In this document: piece after piece, positions 1,542 to 17,115 of the stretch
How the letters are laid out: the number at the start of each line of letters is the position of its first letter
How positions within the stretch are numbered: the stretch's first letter is position 1
Assembly: GCF_010672205.1 (NCBI RefSeq)
Contig: NZ_JAAHHD010000019.1
Span: forward strand, 95,963 to 159,962
DNA length: 64,000 bases
Origin: Moorena sp. SIO3A5
Lineage (GTDB): Bacteria > Cyanobacteriota > Cyanobacteriia > Cyanobacteriales > Coleofasciculaceae
Direction: 5' to 3'
Notes under the pieces: model-generated
What the model saw: the letters and a program-made list of their open reading frames with translations, nothing else
Told to the model about the DNA's origin: nothing
Database searches by the model: none
Made by a program: the position numbers and the translations under genes

Positions 1542-4500
1542 TCATTCTAAATTCTTTTGAGCAAACTTCCGCAGTTTAGGATCGGGGTCATGCTTTGCTC
1601 TATCCTGCAATAAAGACCTGCTTTGGGAATGGTTAGGATAGTATTTGAGAATGGCCTGAAGGGCTATTTGTCGAGGATTGTAATTCTCGTCATCTCTCTC
1701 GTAATCTCTGTCTTTATCAGGGTCAAAGGGGTCATGGAGAGTGCGATCGCATAAAAATTGCGATAACCAAGGCTGGTCGTGCCAAGCTTGAGCTAACTGT
1801 TGAATTGCTTTACCTCGCACATCCGAATCAGTATCAGAGCGAGCGGATTCTTGAAGTATGGGTAAAGTATCTGGGTGGTCTTGGTAACCTTCAGCTAACT
1901 GTTCTATTGCTGTAACTCGCACATCCGAATCTTTATCAGAGCGAGCGGATTCTTGAAGTAGGGGTAAGGTATCTTGGTGGTCTTTGTAACCTTCAGCTAA
2001 CTGTTTAATTGCTGTAACTCGCACATCCGAATCTTTATCAGAGCGAGCGTATTCTTGAAGTAGAGGTAAGGTATCTGGGTGGTCTTGGTAACCTTGAGCT
2101 AACTGTTGAATTGCTTTACCTCGCACATCCGAATCAGTATCAGAGCGAGCCGATTGTTGAAGTAGAGGTAAGGTATCTGGGTCGTCTTGGTAACCTTTAG
2201 CTAACTGTTTAATTGCTGTACCTCGCACATCCGAATCACTATCAGAGCGAGCGGATTCTTGAAGTATGGCTAAGGTATCTGGGTGGTCTTGGTAACCTTT
2301 AGCTAACTGTTCTATTGCTTCACCTCGCACATCCGAATCAGTATCAGAGCGAGCGGATTCTTGAAGTATGGCTAAGGTATCTGGGTGGTCTTGGTAACCT
2401 TGAGCTAACTGTTCTATTGCTTTACCTCGCACCCACGAATCACTATCAGAGCGAGCGGATTCTTGAAGTAGGGGTAAGGTATCTCGGTGGTTTTTGTAAC
2501 CTTGAGCTAACTGTTTTATTGCTGTAAATCGCACCGACGAATCATTATCAGAGCGAGCCCATTTTTGAAGTAGGGCTAAGGTATCTCGGTGGTCTTTGTA
2601 ACCTTGAGCTAACTGTTCTATTGCTGTAACTCGCACCGACGAATCTTTATCAGAGCGAGCCAATTTTTTAAGTAGGGGTAAGGTATCTGGGTGGTCTTTG
2701 TAACCTTTAGCTAACTGTTCAATTGCTGTAGCTCGCACCTTCCAATCATTATCAGAGCGAGCCAATTTTTTAAGTAGAGGTAAAGTATCTGGGTGGTCTT
2801 GGTAACCTTTAGCTAACTGGCAAATTGCTGTACGTCGCACCTTCCAATCATTATCAGAGCGAGCCAATTTTTTAAGTAGGGCTAAGGTATCTGGGTGGTT
2901 AGGATAATATTCGAGGATGGCATTAAGGGCTACTTGTCTAGGATTGCCTTTTATTCTCAAGATCAACCCGAGTTTCTTATCTTCTTCATTAGCATCATAG
3001 GGGTCATGGAGAGTGCGATCGCATAAAAATTCCCATAACCAAGGCTGATTGGCCGTAGGCCACGCTTCGCGATCGTGCCAACCTTGAGCTAACTGTTCAA
3101 TTGCTGTAAGTCGGACATACCAATGTTGATCACAGCGAGCGGATTCTTGAAGTAGGCGTAACGTATCTCGGTTGTCTTGCCAGCCTTGAGCTAACTTTAC
3201 AATTGCTTTACATCGCACCAACCAATCAGTATCACAGCGAGCCAATTCTTGAAGTAGGCGTAACGTATCTGGATGGTCTTGCCAATGGGTGGCTACTGCT
3301 ACAACAGCTGGGATGGAAATACCATAGATTAAGTCTGGATCAAATAAATACTTTTGATAATCATACTTTATAGTATCATGAATTAAGTCTTTGAAGCGAT
3401 TCAGTAATTCACTATCCGTTGATTTAATCTGATACCGATTCCTAACTTCAGACAAACAACCCGCTGCCAGAAATAAATTATCAAACTCATCCGCTTCTCC
3501 ATCTTGTGCCATCAAATACTCAATAATTTCTCCAGCTTTCTTAGAATCAATCATGCCCACAATTAACTTCAGCACTTCATGCCAATACTCATCCCGCCAG
3601 TGCTGACCAAATACCTGTTTTTTCAAATGTTCTAGGGAAATATCCTGGGTTTTCTCAAATTTCCTGACAAATTCCCAAGCACAGAAATATTCCAAAAATG
3701 TCCGATGCACAAAAGCGTAATAATCGGCTCCCATGAAACACAAGATAAAATTGCGGGTGCGCAACTGATTAATCATTACCTTAGCAACCGCTCTCGGGTC
3801 ATTAACATCCCGTAATTTCAGCTCCTCTTTGATAATCCGTTCTAAATCCTCTCCACTAATCAGATTTCCCGCTAATCCGGCTTGATTACCCTGCATAAAA
3901 TATGCCACTTTTCTTAGTATATGTTGCTTATATTCATCATCAATAATCTTCGGGTCAACACGATGATCTTCTTGTAATGCTCGTTCCACATCCCATTGAT
4001 GGAGCAGTAATCGAGAGGATTGGTTATAGAGTTCAGAGCGGTCACGAGGCAAGTCTTGATTGCGATTCAGGATTGCCATCATGGTTAGTAATAGGGGATT
4101 TTGCGCCAGTTCTCGAATCCGATAGGATGTCTCAATGGCTTTTTGTAAGCGATCCTGTTTCCTAACTTTATCGGCTTGATCAGTAAAGTTTAATTTATGC
4201 CACTTCTCAATAAAGTTTTGAATTTGTTCTGACTCCAAGTCTTGGAGCATAACATGACGGAATTCAGCATCCCGTAGCCGTTGGGGTTTATAACCAATTA
4301 CCCGAGATGTTACAATTACTCTTACTTTAGGATAGCGATTGGTAAAGCGATGAATCTCCGTAATTACATCTATTCGTTTCTCTGGATCAAACACTTCATC
4401 CAAGCCATCAAACATAACTAACACCTTACCATCTTTTAACTCCTGATCAAGGTGATGTTGATTCAGATGACATATCGCTCCACTGCTTTGATGGCAGAAT

Positions 4501-5537
4501 TCCAAGAAGTTATTACACTGTCCACTATCGCAATTCCGGATATAGGTGCGTAATTCAATCAGTAAGGGAATTGATAGAGAACTGTCAGTAGTTAGATCGG
4601 TTTTTGCCCACTCCAATGCTAAATATTGCAGCAACGTAGATTTACCAGAGCCTGGGTCTCCTAAAACCACCAAATACCGATAGCTTTGAGAGTCCTCAAT
4701 TACATCCAATACGGATTTTATCGGTTGTTGATAATAACGCTCTTTAGCTCGTTTCAACTCATCTTTGTCAATTTCCCTTTGTAGTTGACCACTCTCGCGC
4801 AGTTTTTGAGAATCATCCTTAGGAAGTTCATGAATCGCCTCCGGCATCAAGTCATGAACTTCTCGGACATTTTGAGGGATAAATATTTTCCATAGTTTTA
4901 GTTCGTTATAAGCACAGCCACTAGTATCTAAACTATCCAATTTGACATTACCGTAGCTCTCTAGGAGTGCTTCCTGATATTCCCTTAAGTCAAAATCTGG
5001 GATAATTCCTGGTTTAGTGTTTTCTGCGATCGCTTCCAAGGTTTGGGAATCTCGGATAGGCCGTAAATCATCGGATTCCCGAATAATCGTTCTTACTTCC
5101 TTGACATACTGTTTACCAATATAGTGCCAATCAAATCCTTCCGGTAATTCTAATAAGTTAAGCTCAATCCAAGTCTGGGCTAATTTTTCGGTATCTATTC
5201 GTTTACAGCCATACTTAAAGGCACTGCCCAGGATAGCTTTAATGGATTTATCCTTAATATACTGCTTGAGGGGTTTAGTATATTGTTTTACGTCTTGCTT
5301 AGATAAATCAGCATCTTCCAATTCTTCTTCCACTAAAGCTACAAATTCTTTTAAAGCTTTACCCAAGAGTTTTTTCTGGATATTTTGATCCGATAGTCCA
5401 GTATAATCTTTGATAGACTCTTTGAAAAAATCTTTAGTGTAGTCTTCTAGAGCTTCTTTCGCCAAAGGACCAATTACTTCCTTGGCCAGATAGCCACCGG
5501 CACTAGAAATTCCCCAAATTGCTAACCAATCCAGCAT
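1542..5537 (-). CDS. NACHT-family STAND NTPase (bacterial NLR-like) with novel N-terminal domain and C-terminal PBS-lyase HEAT-like repeat arrays
   Basis: 1331-aa ORF. Walker A is GDPGSGKSTLLQYLALEW, preceded by the typical pre-NACHT segment (YGNVKLDSLDTSGCAYNELKLWKIFIPQNV); Walker B is LVMFDGLDEV. After the NTPase come about 17 repeats of a ~31-aa unit (ARSDxDxxVRxxAIEQLAQGYxDHPDTLxLLQE), the PBS-lyase HEAT-like signature. The N-terminal 150 aa (MLDWLAIWGISSAGGYLAKEVIGPLAKE…) match no domain I recognise. Confidence 0.8.
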   Translation of the reverse strand: MLDWLAIWGISSAGGYLAKEVIGPLAKEALEDYTKDFFKESIKDYTGLSDQNIQKKLLGKALKEFVALVEEELEDADLSKQDVKQYTKPLKQYIKDKSIKAILGSAFKYGCKRIDTEKLAQTWIELNLLELPEGFDWHYIGKQYVKEVRTIIRESDDLRPIRDSQTLEAIAENTKPGIIPDFDLREYQEALLESYGNVKLDSLDTSGCAYNELKLWKIFIPQNVREVHDLMPEAIHELPKDDSQKLRESGQLQREIDKDELKRAKERYYQQPIKSVLDVIEDSQSYRYLVVLGDPGSGKSTLLQYLALEWAKTDLTTDSSLSIPLLIELRTYIRNCDSGQCNNFLEFCHQSSGAICHLNQHHLDQELKDGKVLVMFDGLDEVFDPEKRIDVITEIHRFTNRYPKVRVIVTSRVIGYKPQRLRDAEFRHVMLQDLESEQIQNFIEKWHKLNFTDQADKVRKQDRLQKAIETSYRIRELAQNPLLLTMMAILNRNQDLPRDRSELYNQSSRLLLHQWDVERALQEDHRVDPKIIDDEYKQHILRKVAYFMQGNQAGLAGNLISGEDLERIIKEELKLRDVNDPRAVAKVMINQLRTRNFILCFMGADYYAFVHRTFLEYFCAWEFVRKFEKTQDISLEHLKKQVFGQHWRDEYWHEVLKLIVGMIDSKKAGEIIEYLMAQDGEADEFDNLFLAAGCLSEVRNRYQIKSTDSELLNRFKDLIHDTIKYDYQKYLFDPDLIYGISIPAVVAVATHWQDHPDTLRLLQELARCDTDWLVRCKAIVKLAQGWQDNRDTLRLLQESARCDQHWYVRLTAIEQLAQGWHDREAWPTANQPWLWEFLCDRTLHDPYDANEEDKKLGLILRIKGNPRQVALNAILEYYPNHPDTLALLKKLARSDNDWKVRRTAICQLAKGYQDHPDTLPLLKKLARSDNDWKVRATAIEQLAKGYKDHPDTLPLLKKLARSDKDSSVRVTAIEQLAQGYKDHRDTLALLQKWARSDNDSSVRFTAIKQLAQGYKNHRDTLPLLQESARSDSDSWVRGKAIEQLAQGYQDHPDTLAILQESARSDTDSDVRGEAIEQLAKGYQDHPDTLAILQESARSDSDSDVRGTAIKQLAKGYQDDPDTLPLLQQSARSDTDSDVRGKAIQQLAQGYQDHPDTLPLLQEYARSDKDSDVRVTAIKQLAEGYKDHQDTLPLLQESARSDKDSDVRVTAIEQLAEGYQDHPDTLPILQESARSDTDSDVRGKAIQQLAQAWHDQPWLSQFLCDRTLHDPFDPDKDRDYERDDENYNPRQIALQAILKYYPNHSQSRSLLQDRAKHDPDPKLRKFAQKNLE
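1760..3310 (-). repeat. Intragenic tandem array of ~93-nt units encoding HEAT-like repeats (two blocks, internal duplication)
   Basis: Near-identical 93-nt units (…gctaactgttctattgctgtaactcgcacatccgaatcagtatcagagcgagcggattcttgaagta…) recur from ~1760 to ~2930 and again at ~3060-3310. The segment encoding 'WL..FLCDRTLHDP..NPRQ.AL.AILEYYPNH' occurs twice in the protein, which indicates an internal duplication. Confidence 0.8.
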
Positions 5538-5675
5538 CTTATTGGTAGTTGTTTTTCGGTTTATCTATCATTATAGATCCGTTTTAATTTGGGTTCATGG
5601 GACCAGGGAGCGCGTAGCGGTATATTTCCCCACATCCTCTACTCCCGACTCCTGATTCCCGATTCCCTTTACTAT

Positions 5676-8600
5676 CTATAATTTTGCTAACTCCTCCTTA
5701 GCAAACTTCTGCAGTTCAGGATCGGGGTCATGCTTTGCTCTATCCTGTAATAAGGATCGGGTTTCGGAATGGTTAGGATAATATTCCAAGATGGCATTAA
5801 GAGCTACTTGTCGAGGATTGTCATCCCAGTCTTCCTTACCTTCAAAGGGTTCATGGAGAGTGCCATCCCATAAAAATTCAAATAACCAAGGCTGGTCTTT
5901 CCAACCTTGAGCTAACTGTTGAATTGCTGTAGATCGCACATCCGAATCAGTATCACAGCGAGCCGATTCTTGAAGTAGAGCCAAGGTATCTCGGTGGTCT
6001 TTGTAACCTTTAGCTAACTGTTCTATTGCTGTAACTCGCACCTGCCAATCAGTATCAGATCGAGCCCATTGTTGAAGTAGGGCTAAGGTATCTCCGTGGT
6101 CTTTGTAAGCTTTAGCTAACTGTTCTATTGCTGTAACTCGCACAGTCGAATCAGTATCAAAGCAAGCCCATCCTTGAAGTAGGGCTAAGGTATCTCCGTG
6201 GTCTTTGTAAGCTTTAGCTAACTGTTCTATTGCTGTAACTCGTACCCACGAATCAGTATCACAGCGAGCCCATCGTTGAAGTAGGGCTAAGGTATCTCGG
6301 TGGTTTTTGTAAGCTTTAGCTAACTGTTCTATTGCTGTAATTCGTACCCACGAATCAGTATCAGGGCGAGCCAATTCTTGAAGTAGGGCTAAGGTATCTT
6401 GGTTGTCTTTGTAACTTTTAGCTAACTGTTCTATTGCTTTACATCGAACATCCGAATCAGTATCACAGCGAGCCAATTCTTGAAGTAGGGCTAAGGTATC
6501 TTGGTCGTCTTTGTAACCTTTAGCTAACTGTTCTATTGCTCTAACTCGCACCTGCCAATCTTGGTCAGAGCGAGCCAATTCTTGAAGCAATGCTAAGGTA
6601 TCTCGGTGGTCTTTGTAAGCTTTAACTAACTGTTCTATTGCTTTACCTCGCACCCACGAATCAGTATCAGAGCGAGCCAATTCTTGAAGTATGTCTAAGG
6701 TATCTATGTTGTTTTTGTAAGTTTTAACTAACTGTTCTATTGCTCTAACTCGCACCCTCCAATCATTATCACAGCGAGCCGATTGTTCAAGTATGGCTAA
6801 GGTATATTGGTGGTTTTTATAACTTTTAGCTAAATGTTCAATTGCTCTAACTCGCACATCCGAATCAGTATCACAGCGAGCCAATTGTTTAATTAGGGCT
6901 AAGGTATCTTTGTGGTCTTTGTAACCTTGAACTAACTGTTCAATCGCTCTAAATCGCACCCACAAATCAGTATCACAGCGAGCCAATTCTTGAAGTAGGG
7001 CTAAGGTATCTTTGTGGTCTTTGTAACCTTGAACTAACTGTTTAATTGCTATAGATCGCACCCACAAATCAGTATCAGAGCGAGCCAATTTTTTAAGTAG
7101 GGCTAAGGTATCTCGGTGGTCTTTGTAACCTTGAACTAACTGTTCAATTGCTCTAACTCGCACATACCTATCAGCATCCGAGCGAGCCAATTTTTTAAGT
7201 AGGGCTAAGGTATCTCGGTGGTCTTGCCAATGGGTGGCTACTGCTACAACAGCTTTAGTGCGAATATCACGGACTAAGTTGGCCTCATCTCCATACTTGT
7301 TATCAGTAGAATTTAGATCATAATGAATTAATTCTTTGATGCGATTCAGTAATCCAATATTCGTTGATTTAATCTCATACCGATTCCTAACCTCAGATAA
7401 ACAATCCCCTGCCAGAAATAAATTATTAAAATCATCCTCTACTCCACCTTGTGCCATCAAATACTCAATAATCTCTCCACCTTTGGTAGAATCAATCATG
7501 CCCACAATCAACTGCAGCGCTTCATGCCAATATTCATCCCGCCAGTGCTTACCAAATACCTCAGTTTTCAACTGTGCTAGGGAAATATCCTGCTTTTTCT
7601 CAAATTTCCTGACAAATTCCCTAGCACAGAAATAGTCCAAAAATGTCCGATGCACAAAAGCGTAGTAATCTGCTCCTATTGAACAAAATATAAAATTGCG
7701 GGTACGCAACTGATTAATCATTACCTTAGCCACCGCTCTGGGATTACTAACCTCCCGTAATTTCAGCTCTTCTTTGATAATTCTTTCTAAATCTTCCCCA
7801 CTAATCAGATTTCGCGCTAATCCTCCTTGATTACCCTGCATAAAATATGCCACTTTTCCCAATATCTCTTGCTTATCTTGATAATCAATAGTCTTCGGAT
7901 CAACACGATTATCTTCTAGTAATGCTAGTTCCACATCCCATTGATGGAGCAGTAAGCGAGAAGATTGGTTATAGAGTTCAGAGCGGTCACGAGGCAATTC
8001 TTGATTGTGGTTCAGGATTGCCATCATGGTTAGTAATAGGGGATTTTGCGCCAGTTGTCGAATCCGAGAGCATGTCTTAATGGCTTTTTGTAAGCGCTCC
8101 TGTTTCCTATCTTTATCCGCTTGATCAGTAAAGGTTAACTCATGCCACTGCTCGATAAACGTTTGAATTTGTTCCGACTCCAAGCCTTGGAGCATTACAT
8201 GACGAAATTCAGCATCCCGTAGCCGTTGAGGTTTATAACCAATTACCCGAGATGTCACAATTACTTGTACCTTAGGATACTGATTCGTAAAGCGATGAAT
8301 ATCAGTAATGACATCTTCTCGTTTCCCTGGCTCAAACACTTCATCCAAGCCATCAAACATCACTAAAACCTTACCAGCCTTTAACTGATCATCAAGTTTA
8401 TTTTGATTGATATCACATATCGCTCCACTACTTTGATGGCAGAATTCCAAGAAATTCTGACACTGTCCACTATCGCGATTCCGGATATAAGTGGGTAAGT
8501 CAATCAGTAACGGAATCCGTAGAGAACTTTCAGTAGTTAGATCAGTTCTTGCCCACTCCAATGCTAAATATTGCAGTAAGGTAGATTTACCAGAGCCTGG

Positions 8601-9110
8601 GTTTCCTAAAACCACCAAATAGCGATAGCCTTGAGAGTCTTTGATCACATCCAATATCGATTGAATTGGCTGTTGATAATAAACCTGTTTAGCTCGTTGC
8701 AACTCCTTTTGGTCAATGTCCTGATCTAATTCACCACTCTCTTGCAGTTTTCGATAATCATCCTTAGGCAGTTCATGAATCGCCTCCGGCATCAAGTCAT
8801 GAACCTCTTGCACATTTTGGGGGATAAATATATTCCAGAGTTTTAGTTCATTATAAGCACAGCCACTAGTATCCAAACTATCCAATTTAACATTACCGTA
8901 GCTCTCTAGGAGTGCTTCCTGATATTTCCTTAACTCAACATCTGGGGTAATTTCTGGTTTAGTGTTTTCTGCGATCGCTTCCAAGGTTTGGGAATTTCGG
9001 ATAGGCCGTAACTGCTCTGATTCCCGAATAATATTTTTTACTTTCTTATTGTTCTTTTTTTTTCCTTTCTTGAGATAGCTTTTACCAATATAGTACATAG
9101 TGCCAATCAA
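5676..9110 (-). CDS. NACHT-family STAND NTPase paralogue with HEAT-like repeats (N-terminal effector-like domain missing from this ORF)
   Basis: 1144-aa ORF, about 75-80% identical to the 1542..5537 product from the latter's residue ~150 onward. It has the same Walker A (GNPGSGKSTLLQYLALEW) and about 17 HEAT-like repeats. Translation here starts with an unrelated lysine-rich peptide (MIGTMYYIGKSYLKKGKKKNNKK). Confidence 0.75.
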   Translation of the reverse strand: MIGTMYYIGKSYLKKGKKKNNKKVKNIIRESEQLRPIRNSQTLEAIAENTKPEITPDVELRKYQEALLESYGNVKLDSLDTSGCAYNELKLWNIFIPQNVQEVHDLMPEAIHELPKDDYRKLQESGELDQDIDQKELQRAKQVYYQQPIQSILDVIKDSQGYRYLVVLGNPGSGKSTLLQYLALEWARTDLTTESSLRIPLLIDLPTYIRNRDSGQCQNFLEFCHQSSGAICDINQNKLDDQLKAGKVLVMFDGLDEVFEPGKREDVITDIHRFTNQYPKVQVIVTSRVIGYKPQRLRDAEFRHVMLQGLESEQIQTFIEQWHELTFTDQADKDRKQERLQKAIKTCSRIRQLAQNPLLLTMMAILNHNQELPRDRSELYNQSSRLLLHQWDVELALLEDNRVDPKTIDYQDKQEILGKVAYFMQGNQGGLARNLISGEDLERIIKEELKLREVSNPRAVAKVMINQLRTRNFIFCSIGADYYAFVHRTFLDYFCAREFVRKFEKKQDISLAQLKTEVFGKHWRDEYWHEALQLIVGMIDSTKGGEIIEYLMAQGGVEDDFNNLFLAGDCLSEVRNRYEIKSTNIGLLNRIKELIHYDLNSTDNKYGDEANLVRDIRTKAVVAVATHWQDHRDTLALLKKLARSDADRYVRVRAIEQLVQGYKDHRDTLALLKKLARSDTDLWVRSIAIKQLVQGYKDHKDTLALLQELARCDTDLWVRFRAIEQLVQGYKDHKDTLALIKQLARCDTDSDVRVRAIEHLAKSYKNHQYTLAILEQSARCDNDWRVRVRAIEQLVKTYKNNIDTLDILQELARSDTDSWVRGKAIEQLVKAYKDHRDTLALLQELARSDQDWQVRVRAIEQLAKGYKDDQDTLALLQELARCDTDSDVRCKAIEQLAKSYKDNQDTLALLQELARPDTDSWVRITAIEQLAKAYKNHRDTLALLQRWARCDTDSWVRVTAIEQLAKAYKDHGDTLALLQGWACFDTDSTVRVTAIEQLAKAYKDHGDTLALLQQWARSDTDWQVRVTAIEQLAKGYKDHRDTLALLQESARCDTDSDVRSTAIQQLAQGWKDQPWLFEFLWDGTLHEPFEGKEDWDDNPRQVALNAILEYYPNHSETRSLLQDRAKHDPDPELQKFAKEELAKL
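5860..7320 (-). repeat. Intragenic tandem array of ~93-nt HEAT-like repeat units in the second NACHT gene
   Basis: About 16 units of the same 93-nt family as in 1760..2930, with the variable residues concentrated in the predicted helix surfaces. Confidence 0.8.
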
Positions 9111-9513
9111 ATCCTTCCGGTAATTCTAATAAGTCAAGCTCAATCTAAGTCTTCGCTAATATATCGGTATCTATTCCTTAACAGCCATACTTGAACGCAC
9201 TGCCCAGGATAGCTTTAATGGATTTATGTTTAATATACTGCTTGAGAGGTTTACTATACTGTTTTAATTCTTGCTTAGATAAATCAGCATCTTCCAATTC
9301 TTCTTCCACTAAAGCCATAAATTATTTTAATGCTTTACCCAAGAGTTTTTTCTGGATATTTTGATCCGATAGTCCGGTATACTCTTTGATGGATACTTTG
9401 AATAAGTCTTTGGTGTAGTCTTCTAGAGCTTCTTTGGCCAACGGACCAATCACCTCTTTGGCGAGATAGCCACCAGCACTAGAAATTCCCCAAACTGCTA
9501 ACCAATCTAGCAT
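9111..9513 (-). pseudogene. Decayed 5' part of the second NACHT gene; only the first 63 codons remain as an ORF (9322..9513)
   Basis: The DNA aligns base-for-base with 5120..5537 of the first gene but carries indels and in-frame stops (for example 'ataaattattttaatgc' versus 'acaaattcttttaaagc'). The 63-aa ORF MLDWLAVWGISSAGGYLAKEVIGPLAKEALEDYTKDLFK… is 90% identical to the N-terminus of the 1542..5537 product. Confidence 0.7.
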
Positions 9514-9571
9514 GATATTGGTAGTTGTTTTTTGGTTTATCTATAATTATAAAGTAAAAGGAGTAGGGAGC

Positions 9572-9619
9572 GGTGCGACCCGTGGCGAATTTAATAATTA
9601 GATGCGGAAAGCGCACCGA
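9572..9619. repeat. Dispersed palindromic element family 'GGTGCGACCCGTGGCGAATTTAAT…GCGCACC' (copy 1 of 5)
   Basis: The inverted-repeat motif is also found at 43873..43919, 47944..48065, 59826..59871 and 63762..63857. Confidence 0.7.
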
Positions 9620-9844
9620 GGGAGTCGGGAGCAGGAAAGTCCAATATAGCGTTTATGGGATGTATGAGGTACGCTTCTCAAGCTCAAAGTCCCTCTTTTA
9701 TAAGGGAAACGGGGGTACGCTTTGGGAACAGGGAACAGGGAGCACAGCTGATGGCTGACAGCTGACAGCTGACAGCTGAGGGCTAAATGCTTACCGGCAG
9801 TTGCTAAGATCAAACTCATCAGTCGGAAAAATTGAGGTCATCTC

Positions 9845-10723
9845 ATGTCACTTGCCAAACCCTCATTTAAAAAAGTTATTCTCCCTCATCCGGCTAAAGA
9901 AACCCTGCCCACCATGTATGATTTACCCAGTGAAGATCCCGAGGAGCCGGGTTTGCCTGACGAATTTCATCTTTGGCAACCACAACTGTGTAGTGAAACA
10001 TTTCGCCCTCCCAATTATGACAGCGAAAGGGTGTTTGTGGCCAGTGACTTAAATTTATATTATGACCCCAACCATACCGCTTGGTACAAACGACCGGATT
10101 GGTTTGCGGTAGTAGGGATTTCCCGATTCTACCAGGGACGAGAGCTCAGAATGAGTTATGTGATCTGGCAAGAAGAAGTCAGACCAATTGTGGCGATAGA
10201 GTTTCTCTCTGCCAGCACCAGAGATCAAGACCTTGGTTACAGTGAACGAACGGGAGAACCACCAACGAAATGGGAAGTGTACGAGCAGATTTTAGCAATT
10301 CCCTACTATATCACCTTTGAGCGAGTCACCAACGAATTAAAAATCTTTCACTTAGATGGCGGCAGCTATCAACCCCAAACAATAGATAATTCCCAATTTT
10401 GGATCCCTGAGTTGCAATTGGGTTTAGGGCTATGGCTTGGGGAATATCGGGGATTGAATCGGTTGTGGCTACGTTGGTATGATCAAGATGGAAATTGGAT
10501 TGCCACTAACGCAGAACGAACCGAACAAGAACGGCAACGAGCCGAACAAGAACGGCAACGAGCCGAACAAGAATACCAACGAGCTGAACAGGAACACCAA
10601 CGAGCTGAACAGGAACACCAACGAGCTGAACAAGAACGTCAACAGAAGGAACTGGCTCAACAACGAGCTCAACAACTAGCAGAACGGTTACGACAGATGG
10701 GTATTAATCCCGATGAAATTTAA
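9845..10723 (+). CDS. Uma2-family (DUF820, PD-(D/E)xK) endonuclease with C-terminal QRAEQE coiled-coil repeats
   Basis: The YDLPSEDPEEPGLPDEFH…PDWFAVVG…RMSYVIWQEEVRPIVAIEFLS motifs are typical of cyanobacterial Uma2 proteins. The C-terminal repeats (ERQRAEQE, six copies) come from an 18/24-nt DNA repeat at 10520..10640. Confidence 0.75.
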   Translation: MSLAKPSFKKVILPHPAKETLPTMYDLPSEDPEEPGLPDEFHLWQPQLCSETFRPPNYDSERVFVASDLNLYYDPNHTAWYKRPDWFAVVGISRFYQGRELRMSYVIWQEEVRPIVAIEFLSASTRDQDLGYSERTGEPPTKWEVYEQILAIPYYITFERVTNELKIFHLDGGSYQPQTIDNSQFWIPELQLGLGLWLGEYRGLNRLWLRWYDQDGNWIATNAERTEQERQRAEQERQRAEQEYQRAEQEHQRAEQEHQRAEQERQQKELAQQRAQQLAERLRQMGINPDEI

Positions 10724-10812
10724 CCCCTGTCTGAGTTTTTCTGTAAGCTATCAGCTATCAGCGTGTCGCGTATCAGCTATCAGCTAAAGGCTGACCACTG
10801 ACGGCTGACCGG

Positions 10813-11667
10813 TCAAGGATTATTGGGGATGTGATCGATTTGGGCATAGCCACTGAAAACTAGCTTTTTACCCTGGGTCTCTAGACGATTGATGCGCATA
10901 GTAACACCATCAAGGTTGAAGCGGTCTAGATCCACCATATTGTTCAAGATCTCATCCAGGGCTACTGTCAAAGTTTGAGATATTTCTTGTAACGACTCTG
11001 GTATTTCATTAGCTTGAAACTGGGAGTCTTTAAACAAAATCCGCCGTCGCCGCTCTACTCCGATGGTAGATGTCATACTAATCGGTACTATGCCGTAATT
11101 CGGTAGATCAGCCTTAGCAAATAACCGTAGACCATTGTTCGGTTGCAGCTGCACTTGCACCTCAGTAAAGGAAACCGGAGCACCACCAGATAGTGCGGTT
11201 AAGGCTGGTGTAGAAAGGTTTTCCAGCCGCTTTCTTACTAGTTGTGCTTTAAAGGATTGGTTGATGTCAGCTTCAGTAAGAATAACTTGAGCGATCGCTT
11301 GAGTAGGTTGTTTCAGAGAAATCTTACCCTGAAGCACTGAGCTGAAATCCAGAGAGACAGCATCGGTTTCAAAGGACATCTCCTCTGTCCGGAATTCCCG
11401 ACGAATCACTAAACCACGACCACTCATTTTGAAACTATCGATGCTACCTTGTAGCAACTTGCTAGAGGGATAGCAGCGCACAGACACATCTACCGATTCG
11501 CTTGTGGTAAACAGGTGGCGAATGGTCTTGCTGGCAACAGTATTGAGCAGCTGTTCACCCCAGTCAGTGCCAGAATTATTTGTACCGGTGAAGCCACCTA
11601 ACATAACCATCTTGCATCCTGCGAGAGTTACTTCTACATTTGTAACAAAATGTGAAGAACTCAGCAA
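10813..11667 (-). CDS. DUF2993 (LmeA-like) family protein
   Basis: 284-aa ORF with an N-terminal hydrophobic segment. It has the overall pattern of cyanobacterial DUF2993 proteins (…LTEADINQSF…, repeated beta-rich modules). The start may instead be the internal Met of MVMLGG. Confidence 0.5.
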   Translation of the reverse strand: MLSSSHFVTNVEVTLAGCKMVMLGGFTGTNNSGTDWGEQLLNTVASKTIRHLFTTSESVDVSVRCYPSSKLLQGSIDSFKMSGRGLVIRREFRTEEMSFETDAVSLDFSSVLQGKISLKQPTQAIAQVILTEADINQSFKAQLVRKRLENLSTPALTALSGGAPVSFTEVQVQLQPNNGLRLFAKADLPNYGIVPISMTSTIGVERRRRILFKDSQFQANEIPESLQEISQTLTVALDEILNNMVDLDRFNLDGVTMRINRLETQGKKLVFSGYAQIDHIPNNP

Positions 11668-12471
11668 TCGATCCTAGGGATTAAGGTTATTTGGTTATTC
11701 CCCATTGACATCCAGTGTAGCGTAAGTTAATCGGTTGTTCACCTTTAGTGTCCAGTGCAGGGTAGGTTATTTGGTTGGTTATCGGTTAATCAGCTGTAGT
11801 ATATCAAATGTAGTATCTCAAACTGGTTAGCTCCAGAGGTCTCGGTTGTAGGGCTTTAGTTGTAGACCTAAAGGGGTCAAAAGCCAGTCTCAACCTTTAT
11901 AGCATTTGTCATAGTTATCAAGTACATTCAATTTTCTTATCCAATCTTGATGGACTCGCTCATGGAGGGGAAGCCATCATGAAGGCGCTGGCTCCCCAAT
12001 GGCTGGGCTGCTCCCTACTCTCTACTCCCTGCTCCCTATTCCCTAACAACCAGAGCCTAAGTACCTGACCCAATTGAGAACTACTTTATAATCCTTCACC
12101 TAATTGTTTACTTTCGTAAAATGTAGCTTAATATAATTAAGGCTTTATAATACTTGTAAAAGTTAGTCAAGAACAAAAATTAACCTAAAGTTGCGGTCTG
12201 TAACGTAATTAATGGGATTTTTGGGATGAGTATCACCGATTCTCATTTACCGATTACCCCTTACTAAACTCAGTTACAGCAAAGACTCCAGGTCAATACA
12301 GCAACCAGAGCTTTTTTTGTTCTCCTACTTTGTAAGCACCCCGCTCGCCCATAGACGAGGCAATAACACCAATAGTTAATCCCACATCTCCGCCAGCGGG
12401 TAGGACCAACGGGCTAATCTTGCCCGAATAGCTAAAAAACTCGGTTAAAAACTTCTAGGTATACGATTATT

Positions 12472-12897
12472 ATGAGCGATAGCACTGTGAGCGATAGCAC
12501 TGTGAGCGATAGCACTGCAATCAATGAAAACACTACCGCAGTTCAGCTAGCAGAAGCTCCAGCACAGGAAACCTCTGCCCTGGATACACTTCCCCCTTTA
12601 CCTGGAAACCGTCCCATTGCTCCTAGTGAGCTTCATATTAGTGAAACACACAGCATAATGGGACATCGACCAATTGATGCCAGTAATCTCCAGGTATTAG
12701 AAACGATGTCTGTAATGGGAGAGCGCCCCATCACTTCTAGCAACATTGAGGTACTCGGTATCATGAAGGTGTCTGGGGAGAGACCAATTGCTGCTAGTAG
12801 TCTTCATCTTGACGAAATAGAGTACATCATGGGCAAGCGTCCCATCGCCCCAAATGATATTGATGCTGATCCACAGCTGATGGGTTATTTAGATTAA
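12472..12897 (+). CDS. Small repeat protein with five 'MG(E/H/K)RPI(A/D/T)xSxL' units
   Basis: 141 aa. It begins with a triple SDSTV repeat (a 15-nt DNA repeat), followed by five ~20-aa repeats, each containing (M/S)GxRPIxxS. Confidence 0.5.
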   Translation: MSDSTVSDSTVSDSTAINENTTAVQLAEAPAQETSALDTLPPLPGNRPIAPSELHISETHSIMGHRPIDASNLQVLETMSVMGERPITSSNIEVLGIMKVSGERPIAASSLHLDEIEYIMGKRPIAPNDIDADPQLMGYLD

Positions 12898-13031
12898 ATT
12901 CAATCACCTGTTGATTTAGCGTCCGCTCCCACAACTGTTTTTTCCACGAACCACCCCTGTTTCAAAACAGGGGAATTTTGTGATTAGCTATTACTCAAGC
13001 CATTAGTAATTAGTAACGTAAGCCATAGATT

Positions 13032-13082
13032 AACCTTAAACCTTAAACCTTAAACCTTAAACCTTAAACCTTCAACCTTCAA
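13032..13082. repeat. Heptanucleotide STR (ccttaaa)x7 overlapping the 3' end of the CDS
   Basis: Direct reading of the sequence. Confidence 0.9.
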
Positions 13083-14405
13083 CATATCAAGGTGTTCTAA
13101 AAAATACTGACGATATAAATTACAACAGAGTGTGACTTGATTTCTCTGAACACTCACCAAACCCATACTCTGTAACTTATAGATACTGATTGGATCTAGT
13201 TCAACTCCCCTATCTGCTATAACCACCTGTTTAAGAGTAGTAGCTAAATCAGGATTTGCCCTGAGTACACTCAAGTGTTGCCGCAAATAGTCACTATAAA
13301 TTCCCGTAGCAGTAGCTGCTTCAGCGAGTAATTGTTCTAGGCTAATGTTATGATAAGCCAAATGATAGAGAGCAAGCTGCACTAATCCCGGATGTCCTCC
13401 CACCATAGCCATCAGTTTCTCAGCAGCTTCACTATTTGACCAATGTAATCTATAAAGCTGCGCTAACTGCTGGATTTGCTGTTTGTTAAACTCGGGTAAC
13501 TTAATCGGTAATCCCACATTAAACGGAGATTGGGAAGTTTCCAGAGCAACATAAATTTCTGTCGAGTAAACCACAATCACCCGCAGCTTTCGCCACACCG
13601 GTAGTTGTTTAGCTTCCTCATGCCAAGAGCGCAATAAGGGCAAAAAATCTTTAGCAGTTTGGGCATGCTCAAACAGGTGATGAACTTGATCCATTGCCAA
13701 AACGAGGGGATGGTGTATTTTTTCTAGGATATGTTCTTGTAAGTAACTCATACAGCTGACCTTACTGCCTAGGTCTTTATCCCAATAGTCATCCAGTTGG
13801 TGGGGAAGCTGGAGTTGGTAACTGACGTTAACACATAACCAGCGCAATAGCCGGTCTAAATTACTTAAAATGGCGGTTTCGGCTTGGTCAAAATTGAGGT
13901 ATACTCTGTGATATTGTTTTTCTCTTGCCTGGTCTAATATTCGCAGCAGCAAAGAGGTTTTTCCTGTCTCTTTTGGTCCTGTAATCCGGAGCAAACTCCC
14001 AGGTTGCTGGATGGCTTGATAGCAAAGCTCTTCAATAGGAGGACGCTTTATATAAAGCTGAGATGGTAGGGGAAGTGCTCCACTGGGAAATTCAGCAATT
14101 TGACGTAGGCATTGACGGCGGTAATATTGCTCAATTATCTCTTGATAGTAGGGAGTAATCGGGGTTGTCTCCAGGGTGTTCCGGAAATTGGTCTTGGTGA
14201 TCGCTTTGCCAAAAATATCTCCCAGTAATCGCCACAACTTATAGGCAGTCTTTCTGAGGTATTCAGGACCATAGTGTGCTTCGATCGCCATATCGGTATA
14301 GGTTTTTCCTTCCCAGGCTTGGTGCAGTATCCATTCCTGAAGTGGAGTCAACTTGATTTTCTCAACACTTTTGAGGATGTCAAGTACCTGATCAATAGTC
14401 ATCAC
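13050..14405 (-). CDS. HTH (sigma-70 region-4/LuxR-like) plus AAA-like ATPase domain protein (AAA_35 type)
   Basis: The N-terminus (LTPLQEWILHQAWEGKTYTDMAIEAHYGPEYLRKTAYKLWRLL) is a helix-turn-helix. The P-loop is GPKETGKTSLLLRIL, and the architecture is the typical cyanobacterial AAA-like one. The last 9 codons are encoded by the heptamer STR at 13032..13082. Confidence 0.7.
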   Translation of the reverse strand: MMTIDQVLDILKSVEKIKLTPLQEWILHQAWEGKTYTDMAIEAHYGPEYLRKTAYKLWRLLGDIFGKAITKTNFRNTLETTPITPYYQEIIEQYYRRQCLRQIAEFPSGALPLPSQLYIKRPPIEELCYQAIQQPGSLLRITGPKETGKTSLLLRILDQAREKQYHRVYLNFDQAETAILSNLDRLLRWLCVNVSYQLQLPHQLDDYWDKDLGSKVSCMSYLQEHILEKIHHPLVLAMDQVHHLFEHAQTAKDFLPLLRSWHEEAKQLPVWRKLRVIVVYSTEIYVALETSQSPFNVGLPIKLPEFNKQQIQQLAQLYRLHWSNSEAAEKLMAMVGGHPGLVQLALYHLAYHNISLEQLLAEAATATGIYSDYLRQHLSVLRANPDLATTLKQVVIADRGVELDPISIYKLQSMGLVSVQRNQVTLCCNLYRQYFLEHLDMLKVEGLRFKV

Positions 14406-15059
14406 TAACAGTTCCCCAATATCTCAAACGACACTTTAGCGCTTTCTAACAAGGCAGACAATTAATTTAGGTTGATTCAGTGATTAAACTGGCTACACTT
14501 GCTAATTGACAAATACATACTATTATGTATAGTGCTGACATGCCTATCAAATGGTTGTCTTGGGATAGTTGACAAATAACTTATTTAAGGGGAATAATTC
14601 GGTTTTAGGTATATTCTAAGGGATTCGGGGTTAATTGAGTGGGTTAATCCGATAAATTTCCAGCAGACTGGGTCAATAGTGTAGCCAAATTTTAAAAGCA
14701 ATTGGCTACATTTTTGTGTTGACGGTAGAGGATACTATCGCCACAATGCTATATGTTGCTCCAACAAATAGAGCTTGTCTGCTAAATCCATAGGTTGAGA
14801 TAAGTCGGTTGCTATAAATAAAGGAAATATGTAGATTTTTTGTGGTTTACTGTTGATGTATTACTCTTAGTAATAAATGCTCAATGAATAATATTTTAGC
14901 GACTAATAGTTTATCTTTAATTACAGCTACAGCCACTGATTTACTTCAATAAATTAATAAGCAGGCAACCTTTTGGTGTGACTATCAAAACTATATAATA
15001 ATTAATTGCCGCCAGGCATTAATTTAACTAATTCAATATGATTTTGCAGATAATTTGGC

Positions 15060-16976
15060 ATGACAAACCCATTAATAATTATTTGTATTGATAATGATCC
15101 ATCAGTTCTCAATAGCCTAAAAACATCTCTAGGTAAGACTCTCGGCAAAGAACATCTGATTGAAAATTTTGAAGGGAGTAAAGGGGTTGTCAAGTTAGTC
15201 GAAGAGTTGCGCCATGATGAGTCTGAAGTTGCTTTAGTTTTGGCTGGTGCTGTTATCCCTGATCTAAAAGGGGATGACTTATTAAACATAGCTTATTTTT
15301 TCTCTAACCAAACTATCAAAATTATGCTGACGGATGATCTGGATTTGGAAGGGACAGCCAAGGCAATTCGGTATGCAAAGTTATATCGTTACCTAGGCAA
15401 GCCTTGTCCATCTGAAGACCTTAAATTGACAGTCATAGAAGCCATACATAGTTATCTTCTTGAGGAAACATTGAAGGCACAAAATCGCCAACTTCAGGAA
15501 CTCAATCAGCACTTGGAAAAAATAATCTGTGATCAAGCAGCACAGATTTCAGAATATACTACAGCACCAGAACAAGCTAATCAAGAGTGGCAGCACCTGA
15601 GTTCTATAAACCGTCAGCAAGCTGTCCTAGTTGACGAACTGCTAGAGAAGCAGTATCAATTGACCCAGTTCCTAGAAAGGATGCCTGTGGGTGTGGCTGT
15701 GTTTAATGATAAGGGGATACTAGAATTCCTCAATTATAAGGCGCGGCAGTTATTCGGAAAGGGAGTCGTGCCATTAACTACAGTTGAGCAAATGCCAGAG
15801 GTTTATCAACTTTATGTTGCCGGAACCAATCAGCTATACTTTGCTGAAAAATTAGTTGCTGTAAAGGCCTTAAAAGGTGAAAACTCCACCCTCGATGATA
15901 TTGAAATCCACCAAGAAGACAAAATTCTCCCTATAGAAAGTTGGGGAACACCTATCTTTAATGAATTGGGTAACATTGCCTATGCTATCGTTGCCTTTCA
16001 TGATATCACCCAACGCAAAAAAGCAGAAGCAGAACACCTACGCTTGATGCAGGAATTCTCGCAAGTTAATCAAGCTTATGAAAGCTTTGTTCCCCATCAG
16101 TTTCTCCAGTTATTGAACAAACCAAGCATTGTCGATGTTCAATTAGGGGATCATGTTCAGCAAGAGATGTCGGTGCTATTTTCCGATATTCGCTCCTTTA
16201 GCACCCTCTCGGAAAGTATGACACCTGAGGAAAATTTTGAATTTATCAATACCTATCTTTCTCGTATGGAATCTGTCATCACTGAAAATCATGGCTTTAT
16301 TGATAAATACATGGGGGATGGGATTATGGCTCTGTTTAACGAAAGTGCTAATCATGCGGTCAACGCCGGAATTGCTATGCTCACATCCCTAGCTGACTAT
16401 AATCAATCTCGGCGAAGCTCAGGACACCCAGCCATCACCGTTGGCATTGGCATCAATACTGGTTCCTTGATGTTAGGAACAGTGGGAGGAAAAAATCGGA
16501 TGGATAGCACTGTCATCAGCGATGGGGTTAATTTAGCGTCTCGTTTAGAAGAATTAACGAAACCTTATGGGGTGCCATTATTAATCACTCACCATACTTA
16601 TTGGAAGTTAGATAATCCCTTAGCTTATGCCATTCGCTTGATTGATCGGGTACCAGTGAAGGGCAAATCCGAAATGGTGACAGTTTATGAAATCTTTGAT
16701 GCCGATGAACCGCAATTGCGAGAGGGCAAGTTAATTACTCGCAGCAAATTTGAACAAGCCTTGGTGCTTTATAATCTGCGTTATTTCTCCAAGGCATCAG
16801 TTCTGTTTCAGGAATGTCTACGCTTGAATCCAGGAGATAGTGTAGCACAAATTTATCTTGGACAATGTCAACTTCATACTCGCCTCTCTGGAGTGACTAA
16901 AATCAAGCAACCATTAAAATCTAGTTTACAAAATTTTGATTATGATGTAATATACAAACCTAACAACAAACTGTAG
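15060..16976 (+). CDS. Response-regulator receiver, PAS, and class III adenylate/guanylate cyclase protein
   Basis: The N-terminal REC fold is IIICIDNDPSVL…LVLAG. PAS-like segments sit around VAVFNDKGILEFLN. The cyclase catalytic core is FSDIRSFSTLSE…YMGDGIMALFN…GINTGSLMLGTVGG, followed by a TPR-like tail. Confidence 0.85.
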   Translation: MTNPLIIICIDNDPSVLNSLKTSLGKTLGKEHLIENFEGSKGVVKLVEELRHDESEVALVLAGAVIPDLKGDDLLNIAYFFSNQTIKIMLTDDLDLEGTAKAIRYAKLYRYLGKPCPSEDLKLTVIEAIHSYLLEETLKAQNRQLQELNQHLEKIICDQAAQISEYTTAPEQANQEWQHLSSINRQQAVLVDELLEKQYQLTQFLERMPVGVAVFNDKGILEFLNYKARQLFGKGVVPLTTVEQMPEVYQLYVAGTNQLYFAEKLVAVKALKGENSTLDDIEIHQEDKILPIESWGTPIFNELGNIAYAIVAFHDITQRKKAEAEHLRLMQEFSQVNQAYESFVPHQFLQLLNKPSIVDVQLGDHVQQEMSVLFSDIRSFSTLSESMTPEENFEFINTYLSRMESVITENHGFIDKYMGDGIMALFNESANHAVNAGIAMLTSLADYNQSRRSSGHPAITVGIGINTGSLMLGTVGGKNRMDSTVISDGVNLASRLEELTKPYGVPLLITHHTYWKLDNPLAYAIRLIDRVPVKGKSEMVTVYEIFDADEPQLREGKLITRSKFEQALVLYNLRYFSKASVLFQECLRLNPGDSVAQIYLGQCQLHTRLSGVTKIKQPLKSSLQNFDYDVIYKPNNKL

Positions 16977-17115
16977 TCTTCGAGTCTGGGCTTCACTTTG
17001 ATTAAATCCAGATCAGGTAAGGCTTTTAGGTAAGCGCGATTGACCAAAGGTCACGCTACGCGAACGCTCTTTTTGTGACAAATGCGGCTAATACCGCAAT
17101 CAATTCCATCAGAAT

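Follow-up and report, generated by a model that had tools for sequence, protein, structure and literature searches.

Immunity in animals, plants and fungi depends centrally on NLR-type receptors. That related bacterial proteins act against phage is a recent finding, and almost all of those tested are enterobacterial. The largest repertoires are found in cyanobacteria. In plants, paired or helper-sensor NLRs are adjacent paralogs, one of which can no longer act as an executioner by itself and may need its partner. A literature search for paired or helper NLRs in bacteria yielded only plant and fungal work.

Several described systems resemble the locus analyzed here. The bacterial NACHT (bNACHT) proteins that have been tested are anti-phage, follow a sensor/switch/effector plan and carry NNH1, REase, TIR and similar domains, and cyanobacteria hold many bNACHT paralogs (Kibby et al. 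2022/2023). Avs proteins are activated on binding phage proteins. In fungi, NLRs such as Podospora HNWD/nwd have internally conserved repeats, polymorphism in repeat number and a few positively selected sites on the binding face (Dyrka et al. 2014); these repeat NLRs serve allorecognition, and their likeness to the Moorena genes lies in repeat evolution.

We analyzed a 64,000-nucleotide stretch of the Moorena sp. SIO3A5 chromosome (the window) that contains two NACHT genes. Their architecture is not new: NNH2 with NACHT and HEAT_2 is already catalogued in clade 2 of the bacterial NACHT census (Kibby et al. 2022/2023, Table S1). What makes the locus interesting beside this catalogued architecture is a conserved, truncated partner that lacks NNH2. 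We favor, with a probability of roughly 0.6, the reading that the locus is a birth-and-death cluster of NNH2-NACHT-HEAT receptors in which gene 1 is complete, gene 2 is a retained output-less duplicate, and the probable function is the sensing of non-self.

Layout of the locus

Both genes lie head-to-tail on the minus strand, as do all features below unless marked (+). Gene 1 (1542-5537) is an intact ORF of 1331 aa with Pfam domains NNH2-NACHT-HEAT. Gene 2 was listed as an ORF of 1144 aa (5676-9110). Its likely start is the ATG at 9096-9098, which gives an N-terminally truncated paralog of 1140 aa (5676-9098), identical to NCBI protein P0021 from Moorena sp. SIO3A5. Upstream of this start is a decayed 5' remnant of gene 2 (9099-9513) that is colinear with the 5' end of gene 1 and includes a 63-aa ORF (9322-9513). 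Immediately 5' of the old gene 2 ATG is a 36-nt leader (9516-9551) that is 94% identical to the sequence upstream of gene 1 (5540-5575), and thus the duplication took in the 5' leader.

The original prediction had described two head-to-tail ORFs of 1331 and 1144 aa, a NACHT domain with Walker motifs, a HEAT-like repeat array, a flanking Uma2 gene and a dispersed element, and each of these was found. Other parts of it need revision. The N-terminal domain that it called unknown is the named family NNH2. The two genes do not share one tripartite plan, gene 2 having kept only the last part of NNH2, and the "orphan N-terminal fragment" belongs to the 5' end of gene 2, which has decayed. The copies, put at 75-80% identity, are 65% identical as proteins (BLASTP alignment, gaps counted) and 88% identical as DNA over the first 2.2 kb.

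The Uma2-family gene (9845-10723 (+); PF05685, E = 4e-15) encodes a putative endonuclease. It is kept in loci L003, L005 and L006, and a TnpB-like gene takes its place in L007. It is a syntenic neighbor, linked to the NLR genes by position. Short dispersed repeats are present in both flanks of the gene pair.

Domains of the two proteins

The NNH2 domain of gene 1 (aa 25-205; 4923-5465) matches PF22734 over profile positions 1-181 (E = 4.5e-60). It is preceded by a conserved N-terminus of hydrophobic and small residues (aa 1-24), in which W8 and G15 are invariant. In an AF2 model the core of the domain (aa 50-160) is helical, with pLDDT mostly >85, and its termini are modeled poorly. Fold comparison of NNH2 gave no recognizable relative, fold and sequence comparisons together gave none that points to an output activity, and no NNH2-bearing homolog with a tested function was found in the bacterial NACHT/Avs literature; "NNH2" as a search term retrieves mainly chemistry. 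The match in gene 2 is limited to profile positions 122-181, the last ~60 residues, which falls short of a full domain.

We called a domain NACHT if the profile score was above the curated threshold and the sequence contained both Walker A GxxxxGK[ST] and Walker B hhhhDGhDE, as is the case in both genes. The NACHT NTPase core of gene 1 (aa 287-448; 4194-4679) scores 63.8 bits and that of gene 2 (8139-8624) 54.9 bits, against a PF05729 cut-off of 26.7. The Walker A motifs are GDPGSGKST and GNPGSGKST, respectively, and LVMFDGLDE is the Walker B motif of both.

By its predicted domains, gene 1 is a complete NNH2-NACHT-HEAT protein with the NLR-like STAND architecture of N-terminal domain, NACHT and repeat sensor. 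Moorena loci L001, L003, L005 and L006 have orthologs at this position, and the length of gene 1 ranges from 988 to 1389 aa among strains. Gene 1 is absent in L007 and triplicated in L003.

Decay and retention in gene 2

A TGG>TAG change at codon 123 is common to all seven Moorena gene 2 orthologs. All seven also carry a 7-nt insertion, ACTATGT (9095-9101), that is found in no gene 1 copy and is a near-duplicate of the ACTATAT that comes next. With this insertion the NNH2 coding sequence upstream falls out of frame and gene 2 gains its new ATG, which is conserved in 7/7 orthologs. Because of the codon-123 TAG and the frameshift with its new ATG, gene 2 lacks NNH2 residues 1-136; the remnant represents former NNH2 codons 1-137. 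An in-frame insertion of 24 nt (9045-9068), encoding the Lys/Asn-rich KGKKKNNK, is likewise present in every ortholog and restricted to the gene 2 lineage. The lesions of the remnant in the window are TAA at 9322-9324, TAA at 9178-9180, TAG at 9145-9147 and the +7-nt frameshift at 9095-9101. Beyond TAG123 and the shared insertions, the lesions of the remnant are lineage-specific. As judged from the aligned orthologs, gene 2 is an anciently 5'-truncated paralog in which NNH2 had already been destroyed when the sampled Moorena strains diverged.

Two ways in which this region might still serve gene 2 were rejected. The A9 run within the 24-nt insertion is not conserved among strains, which speaks against phase variation there. 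Against programmed frameshifting or read-through from the remnant into gene 2 speaks the presence of several lesions that vary from strain to strain.

Gene 2 could simply be a dead pseudogene that makes no protein, its ORF surviving through repair by frequent conversion from intact paralogs and the shortness of the time elapsed. The destroyed N-terminal domain and the decaying old start region are what such a gene would leave. Furthermore, a promoter/terminator scan found fewer promoter-like sites than in shuffled sequence and nothing usable for gene 2 expression, and no promoter or ribosome-binding signal was established for gene 2 by sequence scan. Gene 2 departs from the family at 22-29 of 209 conserved positions, twice the number for gene 1 (11-16 of 209), although it retains 87-89% of them. 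About 50% of the variable sites in its ORF share alleles with gene 1, and conversion tracts are visible. The w of its lineage-specific (private) substitutions is ~0.7, not significantly <1, compared to ~0.28 for gene 1.

The distribution of lesions argues against a dead gene. Since the common ancestor, the remnant (~410 nt) has acquired at least four nonsense changes and five frameshifting indels (+1, -4, -2, -1 and +23). The non-repeat part of the gene 2 ORF (1707 nt) is about four times as long and has accumulated 81 private substitutions to the remnant's 33, and yet it contains no disabling lesion, as against at least nine in the remnant. Conversion reaches the remnant too, and its lesions persist all the same. 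Indels are in frame in five of five cases in the non-repeat ORF and frameshifting in five of five in the remnant, and all indels in the complete ORF (6, 6, 24, 24, 24, 102 and 102 nt) are multiples of three. The ORF is open in all seven Moorena genomes (1140-1190 aa), in each case behind the new ATG. Together, these observations make a dead pseudogene unlikely.

We used counts of private substitutions, lesions and indels in place of pairwise dN/dS, which came out at 0.33 for the remnant and 0.40 for the gene 2 ORF and so failed to tell them apart, gene 1 variation being brought in by conversion. The remnant's private substitutions are neutral, with an N:S of 24:8 where 3.9:1 is expected. Gene 1 has a pairwise w of ~0.25, indicating purifying selection. 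In the reading that we favor, the NACHT-HEAT frame of gene 2 would have been kept open by selection while constraint on its amino acids was relaxed, and therefore gene 2 is most likely made as an output-less NLR.

HEAT arrays

The repeat arrays match HEAT_2 with 308 bits (E = 1.2e-93) in gene 1 and 190 bits (E = 6.1e-57) in gene 2, and consist of tandem 102-nt (34-aa) units, with 10.9 + 2.1 copies in gene 1 and 13.1 in gene 2 (TRF). From the N-terminal side, gene 1 has a proximal mini-array of two units (aa 754-821; 3075-3278), an internal copy of the C-terminal cap module (aa 822-879; 2901-3074), a main array of eleven units (aa 880-1253; 1779-2900; TRF period 102, 91% matches), and the C-terminal cap and tail with the stop codon (aa 1254-1331; 1542-1778). 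Gene 2 has a single array of thirteen units (5898-7223; TRF period 102, 87% matches) and also keeps the C-terminal cap. Within the internal cap copy of gene 1 is a small in-frame insert resembling a dispersed element (3052-3071) that encodes ..REAWPTA... The gene 2 remnants of L001, L002, L005 and L007 carry the same element as an insert of 23 nt that shifts the frame, and L006 gene 2 carries it as an in-frame insert of 24 nt.

An AF2 model of the main array of gene 1 is an alpha-solenoid (pLDDT 90) in which unit positions 5-15 form helix A and 19-32 form helix B. In this confident model the hypervariable positions 20, 23, 24 and 27 share one face of helix B, and they differ between the gene 1 and gene 2 arrays. 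Among units, whole-unit dN/dS is 1.5-1.9, as estimated by NG86 on paralogous units that undergo conversion. Hypervariable columns picked on one gene gave dN/dS of 2.9-3.9 in the other, a cross-validated result. Both dN/dS >1 and the one-face hypervariable columns support diversifying evolution of the HEAT repeats, inferred here from the repeat sequences. The original prediction of diversification thus held up. The proposed difference in repeat number did not, each of the two genes having 13 units in different arrangements; among strains, gene 2 has 13-14.

Between orthologs, dN is also high at the hypervariable positions, a pattern that unit shuffling alone could yield.

Gene conversion

Mosaic patterns of diagnostic sites indicate that the paralogs exchange tracts, and by this measure gene 1 and gene 2 do trade sequence by gene conversion. 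For example, L002 has a 129-nt run of identity between paralogs, compared to ~44 expected. Conversion is seen in both directions, and the gene 2 stop TAA64 is also found in L002 gene 1.

Such exchange raises the question of whether gene 2 is a silent donor cassette, kept free of stops by second-order selection, that diversifies gene 1 by conversion. A donor of this kind would account for two-way conversion, for an ORF that is open under weak amino-acid constraint, and for hypervariable positions that differ between the arrays. It would not account for the remnant, which joins in conversion and is not kept open. A silent cassette would also have no need of a conserved new ATG or of in-frame N-terminal insertions. 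Within the window, gene 1 is almost purely of type 1 and gene 2 of type 2, neither showing a recent tract, and the identity of unit DNA is lower between arrays (0.83) than within them (0.84-0.87). We therefore regard a donor cassette as very improbable.

Family and genomic context

The two genes belong to a large family (~3,700 members), which in filamentous cyanobacteria shows 57-65% identity across orders. The family alignment has ~200 near-invariant columns, and by this alignment conservation is unusually high for an immune gene.

Defense databases did not place the genes in a known defense family. PADLOC gave no match better than E = 1e-4 to any defense model; the best matches, PtuA (E = 1.8e-4) and mad8 (E = 1e-3), covered the P-loop alone. 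None of the Avs models in PADLOC matched at E <= 0.01. Of the suggested NLR-like or Avs architecture, then, the NLR-like STAND part applies to gene 1 and the Avs type finds no support. The NCBIfam model EruA scored 39.6 bits against a cut-off of 1000. Across PADLOC and NCBIfam, there was no family assignment beyond generic P-loop and HEAT matches.

The surroundings look like ordinary chromosome. The Moorena neighborhood, which includes the Uma2 gene, an AAA_35/HTH_VMAP-M9 NTPase, LmeA, a cyclase and CLC-CBS-Usp, is syntenic and holds housekeeping genes; in the small sample of contexts examined it does not look like a defense island. Two distant homologs whose contexts were inspected are both solitary genes in ordinary surroundings. 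One of them has a Type ISP restriction-modification gene and an HNH-helicase gene 5-8 kb away; the other has none nearby.

This context, the conservation across orders, the purifying selection on gene 1, the fixed syntenic site in Moorena, the solitary homologs among housekeeping genes and the lack of a PADLOC match could all be explained if the family were a conserved, non-immune regulator of filamentous cyanobacteria, for example a STAND switch that controls programmed cell death or differentiation or whose HEAT repeats monitor an endogenous protein such as phycobiliproteins. The HEAT units do resemble NblB/PBS-lyase-type repeats (NCBIfam NblB, E = 1.4e-17, far below the cut-off). However, whole-unit dN/dS >1 and hypervariable positions confined to one helix face do not fit such a role. 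Close strains differ in repeat and copy number, and some have lost or pseudogenized copies. These are hallmarks of conflict genes and would be unexpected for the sensor of a conserved endogenous ligand. In addition, the bacterial NACHT proteins that have been tested act against phage (Kibby et al. 2022/2023). We consider a cellular regulator improbable, somewhat more so than a dead gene 2.

Discussion

Reasoning by analogy from NACHT/STAND proteins that have been characterized, we postulate that the gene 1 protein would bind its trigger through the hypervariable B-helix face of the HEAT solenoid. Binding could then drive NTP-dependent oligomerization of the NACHT module, and oligomerization would cluster the helical NNH2 domains to produce an output, possibly as a non-enzymatic effector or an adaptor. 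The role of the locus is most likely the sensing of non-self, which might be phage or another conflict. We infer an anti-phage role from homology to the tested bNACHT class. The arrays probably evolve by duplication and loss of units, by conversion and by diversifying selection.

In gene 2, the codon-123 TAG and the 7-nt duplication would have destroyed NNH2, and the same duplication would have made the new ATG. The resulting protein might act through gene 1 or another full-length paralog, either by adding a sensor subunit or by modulating assembly. More specifically, gene 2 may be a functional output-less NLR, retained throughout the radiation of the sampled Moorena strains, that co-assembles with the adjacent full-length NLR as an added sensor or a brake. 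We hold this proposal tentatively, and hetero-oligomerization of the gene 1 and gene 2 proteins is pure conjecture on our part.

Some observations count against the reading that we favor. These are the lack of a PADLOC match, the syntenic housekeeping site, the solitary homologs, the high conservation of the family, an NNH2 domain without a relative that points to an output, a w of the gene 2 ORF that is not significantly below one, the failure of pairwise dN/dS to tell remnant from ORF, and the possible origin of the high dN between orthologs in unit shuffling.

The locus provides a natural comparison within one genus between an intact receptor and a long-retained partner without the N-terminal domain, and includes strains in which the intact copy has been lost, killed by conversion or triplicated. 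If gene 2 is functional, then NLR pairing becomes testable in bacteria, and the first 136 residues of NNH2 would stand out as a dispensable or dangerous part that gives the output. If it is not, the locus adds one more ordinary member to a catalogued family.

Gene 1 resembles the bNACHT proteins described by Kibby et al. in having an N-terminal NNH2, a central NACHT and a C-terminal HEAT region. The Moorena locus differs from these in adding a conserved partner without NNH2, and in that no PADLOC model matches it. Similarly, Avs/AVAST proteins are single-polypeptide STAND NTPases with an N-terminal output domain and a repeat sensor. In contrast to these, the Moorena NTPase is of the NACHT clade and its putative output domain is NNH2, which is perhaps non-enzymatic.

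The plant paired NLRs are alike in being adjacent NLR paralogs, one of them truncated in Moorena, and this is a resemblance only. The Moorena genes are head-to-tail, not head-to-head, and gene 2 lost its N-terminal domain and gained no integrated decoy. If gene 2 does prove to be an output-less partner, a 7-nt duplication would have given rise to a prokaryotic equivalent of paired or helper-dependent NLRs.

The closest likeness in repeat evolution is to Podospora HNWD/nwd. As in those genes, the Moorena units are internally conserved (>~83% identical), polymorphic in number, exchanged within and between paralogs, and selected on one face. Unlike them, the Moorena repeats are prokaryotic HEAT and not WD, ANK or TPR, and the N-terminal domain is NNH2 and not HET or HeLo. 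Judging from the unit sequences, HEAT repeats in a prokaryote evolve under the regime known from fungi, in which repeats stay alike within an array, are shuffled and come under positive selection.

Domain organization of the gene pair and its surroundings

Gene 1 (1542-5537, minus strand, 1331 aa) encodes NNH2 ("NACHT N-terminal helical domain 2", PF22734; aa 25-205, Pfam E = 4.5e-60), NACHT (PF05729; aa 287-448, 63.8 bits with a cut-off of 26.7) and eight HEAT_2 stretches (308 bits). The Pfam matches to the gene 2 ORF (5676-9110, minus strand, 1144 aa counted from a TTG) are to NNH2 profile positions 122-181 only, then to NACHT and HEAT_2. The Walker motifs of the original prediction can be read in both genes, LVMFDGLDE for Walker B and, for Walker A, GDPGSGKST (gene 1) or GNPGSGKST (gene 2). 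That prediction described a real pair but misdescribed it in part: because of the Pfam match, its "unknown" N-terminal domain is the named family NNH2, and its separate "orphan fragment", a 63-aa ORF (9322-9513, minus strand), represents the 5' end of gene 2.

The pair lies between the end of a CBS+Usp gene (13-1326) and genes for Uma2 (9845-10723) and LmeA (10813-11667). The intergenic flanks (1327-1541, 5538-5675 and 9514-9844) contain short tandem heptamer-type repeats (GGGAATC; CAGCTGT/ACAGCTG five times at 9744-9779) and dispersed repeats of 25-40 nt that recur at 10771, 43872, 57116-57397, 59847, 60820 and 63763. A second NTPase, AAA_35 (13050-14405, minus strand, 451 aa, E = 2e-143), is 3.5 kb from the pair and syntenic in every Moorena locus that reaches far enough upstream; its Moorena orthologues bear an N-terminal HTH_VMAP-M9 domain, from a family named after conflict systems. 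Elsewhere the window holds ordinary chromosomal genes (SecY, Na/H exchanger, radical SAM, Amt, RNase II). An 879-aa ORF at 39513-42152 (minus strand) carries the complete domain set of the Major Vault Protein (Vault repeats, E = 2e-68; MVP_shoulder, E = 7e-54; Vault_2, Vault_3 and Vault_4), a eukaryote-type vault shell protein on a cyanobacterial chromosome.

An old truncation with a new start codon

In a DNA alignment, position 9513 and the sequence below it run colinear with gene 1, starting at the gene 1 ATG, at 88% identity across 2.2-2.4 kb. Gene 2 has the following lesions in its first ~440 nt (minus strand): stops at codons 64 (TAA, 9322-9324), 112 (TAA, 9178-9180) and 123 (TAG, 9145-9147), a 7-nt insertion (ACTATGT, 9095-9101) that is a near-copy of the ACTATAT that comes after it, and a 24-nt in-frame insertion encoding KGKKKNNK (9045-9068). 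The 7-nt insertion shifts the upstream frame and also provides an ATG (9096-9098) in frame with all downstream sequence. The protein from this ATG (1140 aa) is identical to the NCBI protein P0021 of Moorena sp. SIO3A5.

We compared six syntenic Moorena loci: L001 (Moorena sp. SIO3H5), L002 (a MAG), L003 (M. bouillonii PNG5-198), L005 (SIOASIH), L006 (SIO3B2) and L007 (an ENA MAG). Genes in these loci run in the order release factor, cyclase, HTH_VMAP-M9+AAA_35, small ORF, LmeA, Uma2, remnant plus gene 2, gene 1 and CLC-CBS-Usp. TAG123 and both insertions are common to all seven gene 2 orthologues and absent from every gene 1 copy compared. The damage to the remnant after these shared lesions is lineage-specific. 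TAA64 is in six of the seven orthologues, TAA112 in two and TGA137 in L001, L002 and L007. L003 has lost the start codon and carries TAA28 and a -1 deletion; L001 has a +1 insertion, L006 a -4 deletion, and L002 and L007 each a -2 deletion. Four genomes (L001, L002, L005 and L007) have a 23-nt small-element insertion. The ORF from MYYIGK is open in 7/7 genomes (1140-1190 aa), with indels that are all multiples of three (6, 6, 24, 24, 24, 102 and 102 nt). Judged from these alignments, gene 2 was truncated long ago, and its frame downstream has been maintained.

The small dispersed element (~23-24 nt, CGCGTAGCGTGGCCAACGGC-like) encodes ..RVAWPTAN.. when in frame. It is in frame (24 nt) in the coding HEAT-cap regions of the window (3052-3071, minus strand, its single copy there) and of L006 gene 2, and is a frameshifting 23-nt insert in the dead remnants. 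In L005 (9374-9928), the remnant without TAA64 is called as a 184-aa NNH2-only ORF that terminates within this insertion; the missing stop may reflect local repair by conversion from gene 1.

Gene 1 varies in copy number and in length, from 988 to 1389 aa among strains. It is absent from L007, where a Fic and MazE-antitoxin pair (13718-14322) lies in its place directly downstream of gene 2 and a TnpB/Cas12f-like ORF (7389-8861) replaces the Uma2 gene. L003 has two further gene 1 copies, one truncated; its tandem triplet (8489-17681), made up of gene 2 and two gene 1-like ORFs (a truncated one of 477 aa and one of 1117 aa), shows a change in copy number at the locus.

Gene conversion and selection

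At half of its variable sites, the gene 2 ORF has alleles that also occur in gene 1, diagnostic-site strings are mosaic in several strains, and L002 has an identical run of 129 nt between the two genes, compared with about 44 expected. These patterns show gene conversion between the paralogues. Because of it, standard pairwise dN/dS among the Moorena orthologues does not separate the remnant (0.33) from the gene 2 ORF (0.40; gene 1 orthologues, 0.25). In L002, the gene 1 orthologue (12616-14879) has TAA64 inside a gene 2-type diagnostic-site tract, plus an extra insertion, and resembles an intact gene that conversion from its pseudogenised neighbor has inactivated.

A clearer count uses only private substitutions, for gene 2 those confined to its clade. 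Nonsynonymous to synonymous counts are 24:8 in the remnant (neutral, at a site ratio of 3.9:1), 59:22 in the gene 2 ORF (w about 0.7, below 1 but not significantly so) and 106:99 in gene 1 (w about 0.28). Thus, the remnant is neutral, gene 1 is clearly constrained, and the gene 2 ORF seems to be under strong selection to stay open but only weak selection on its residues. Gene 2 retains its NTPase motifs. Of 209 positions conserved at 95% or more in 37 homologues from outside Moorena, it departs at 22-29, and gene 1 orthologues depart at 11-16.

Gene 2 could instead be a pseudogene kept open by conversion, which we regard as unlikely. Disabling events per private substitution are 9 per 33 in the remnant and 0 per 81 in the ORF, and it is very unlikely that one common neutral process accounts for both. 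That gene 2 serves mainly as a silent donor cassette seems far less probable still.

Diversification of the HEAT arrays

The repeat unit is 102 nt (34 aa). In gene 1, an internal copy of the C-terminal cap module separates the first two units from the other 11, which are followed by the cap; the gene 2 array is an unbroken run of 13 units before its cap. Units share a mean nucleotide identity of 0.87 within gene 1, 0.84 within gene 2 and 0.83 across the two genes. Nine unit positions are invariant (T5, L6, A13, D16, V21, R22, A25, I26 and L29), and positions 3, 11, 12, 17, 20, 23, 24 and 27 are hypervariable. Since picking columns by their variability is circular, we used cross-validation: columns picked on one gene and scored in the other, against whole-unit dS, give dN/dS of 2.9-3.9. 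Whole units, with no column selection, give 1.5-1.9. In a confident AF2 single-sequence model of gene 1 aa 880-1331 (pLDDT 90), helix A spans unit positions 5-15 and helix B spans 19-32. Positions 20, 23, 24 and 27 (and 31) have the i, i+3/4, i+7, i+11 spacing of one helix face, and the invariant residues are predicted to lie on the other faces, the surface being read from spacing. Together, these results show diversification at one helix face and, with the domain set, support the proposal that the locus is NLR-like and its HEAT sensor is diversifying. Between gene 2 orthologues, w is 2.35 at hypervariable positions, 0.70 at the remaining array positions and 0.42 for the NACHT region; unit shuffling alone could yield the value of 2.35.

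Possible roles and relation to known systems

Following the NACHT/STAND paradigm, the HEAT solenoid would bind a ligand, NTP-dependent oligomerization would occur, and clustered NNH2 domains would give the output. Gene 2 is without NNH2 residues 1-136, and therefore any function it has must dispense with that domain. The most parsimonious proposal is that gene 2 would co-assemble with a full-length paralogue, as an extra sensor or modulator. That the family is a non-immune regulator is another explanation, which we consider rather improbable. Searches with PADLOC and NCBIfam profiles matched neither gene to a named defense family, and the results support neither the suggested Avs-type membership nor a proven role in defense.

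The family has many members: of 8000 candidates scored with a 732-aa query, taken from the non-repeat N-terminal part of gene 1, 3686 reach E <= 1e-3. Over this query, homologues in Coleofasciculus, Nostoc, Calothrix, Scytonema, Oscillatoria and others share 57-65% identity with gene 1. Two distant homologues are solitary genes without a conserved partner. NNH2 itself is narrow (317 clusters at 50% identity, E <= 1e-3), nearly always spans residues 1-~217 in proteins that are about 900-1400 aa long, and had no relative in fold or sequence searches.

The NNH2-NACHT-HEAT architecture is already catalogued. Kibby et al. defined NNH domains, counted HEAT as one of the repeat types that act as sensors in bacterial NACHT proteins, and reported that no other group has as many paralogues as cyanobacteria; their Table S1 lists exactly NNH2+NACHT+HEAT_2 in a cyanobacterium, and NNH2+NACHT+FGE-sulfatase elsewhere. 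The part worth pursuing is a long-retained NACHT-HEAT paralogue that has no N-terminal domain and has a newly made start codon. For the HEAT arrays, the closest evolutionary parallel is the repeats of fungal NLRs, which are likewise internally conserved, shuffled and positively selected.
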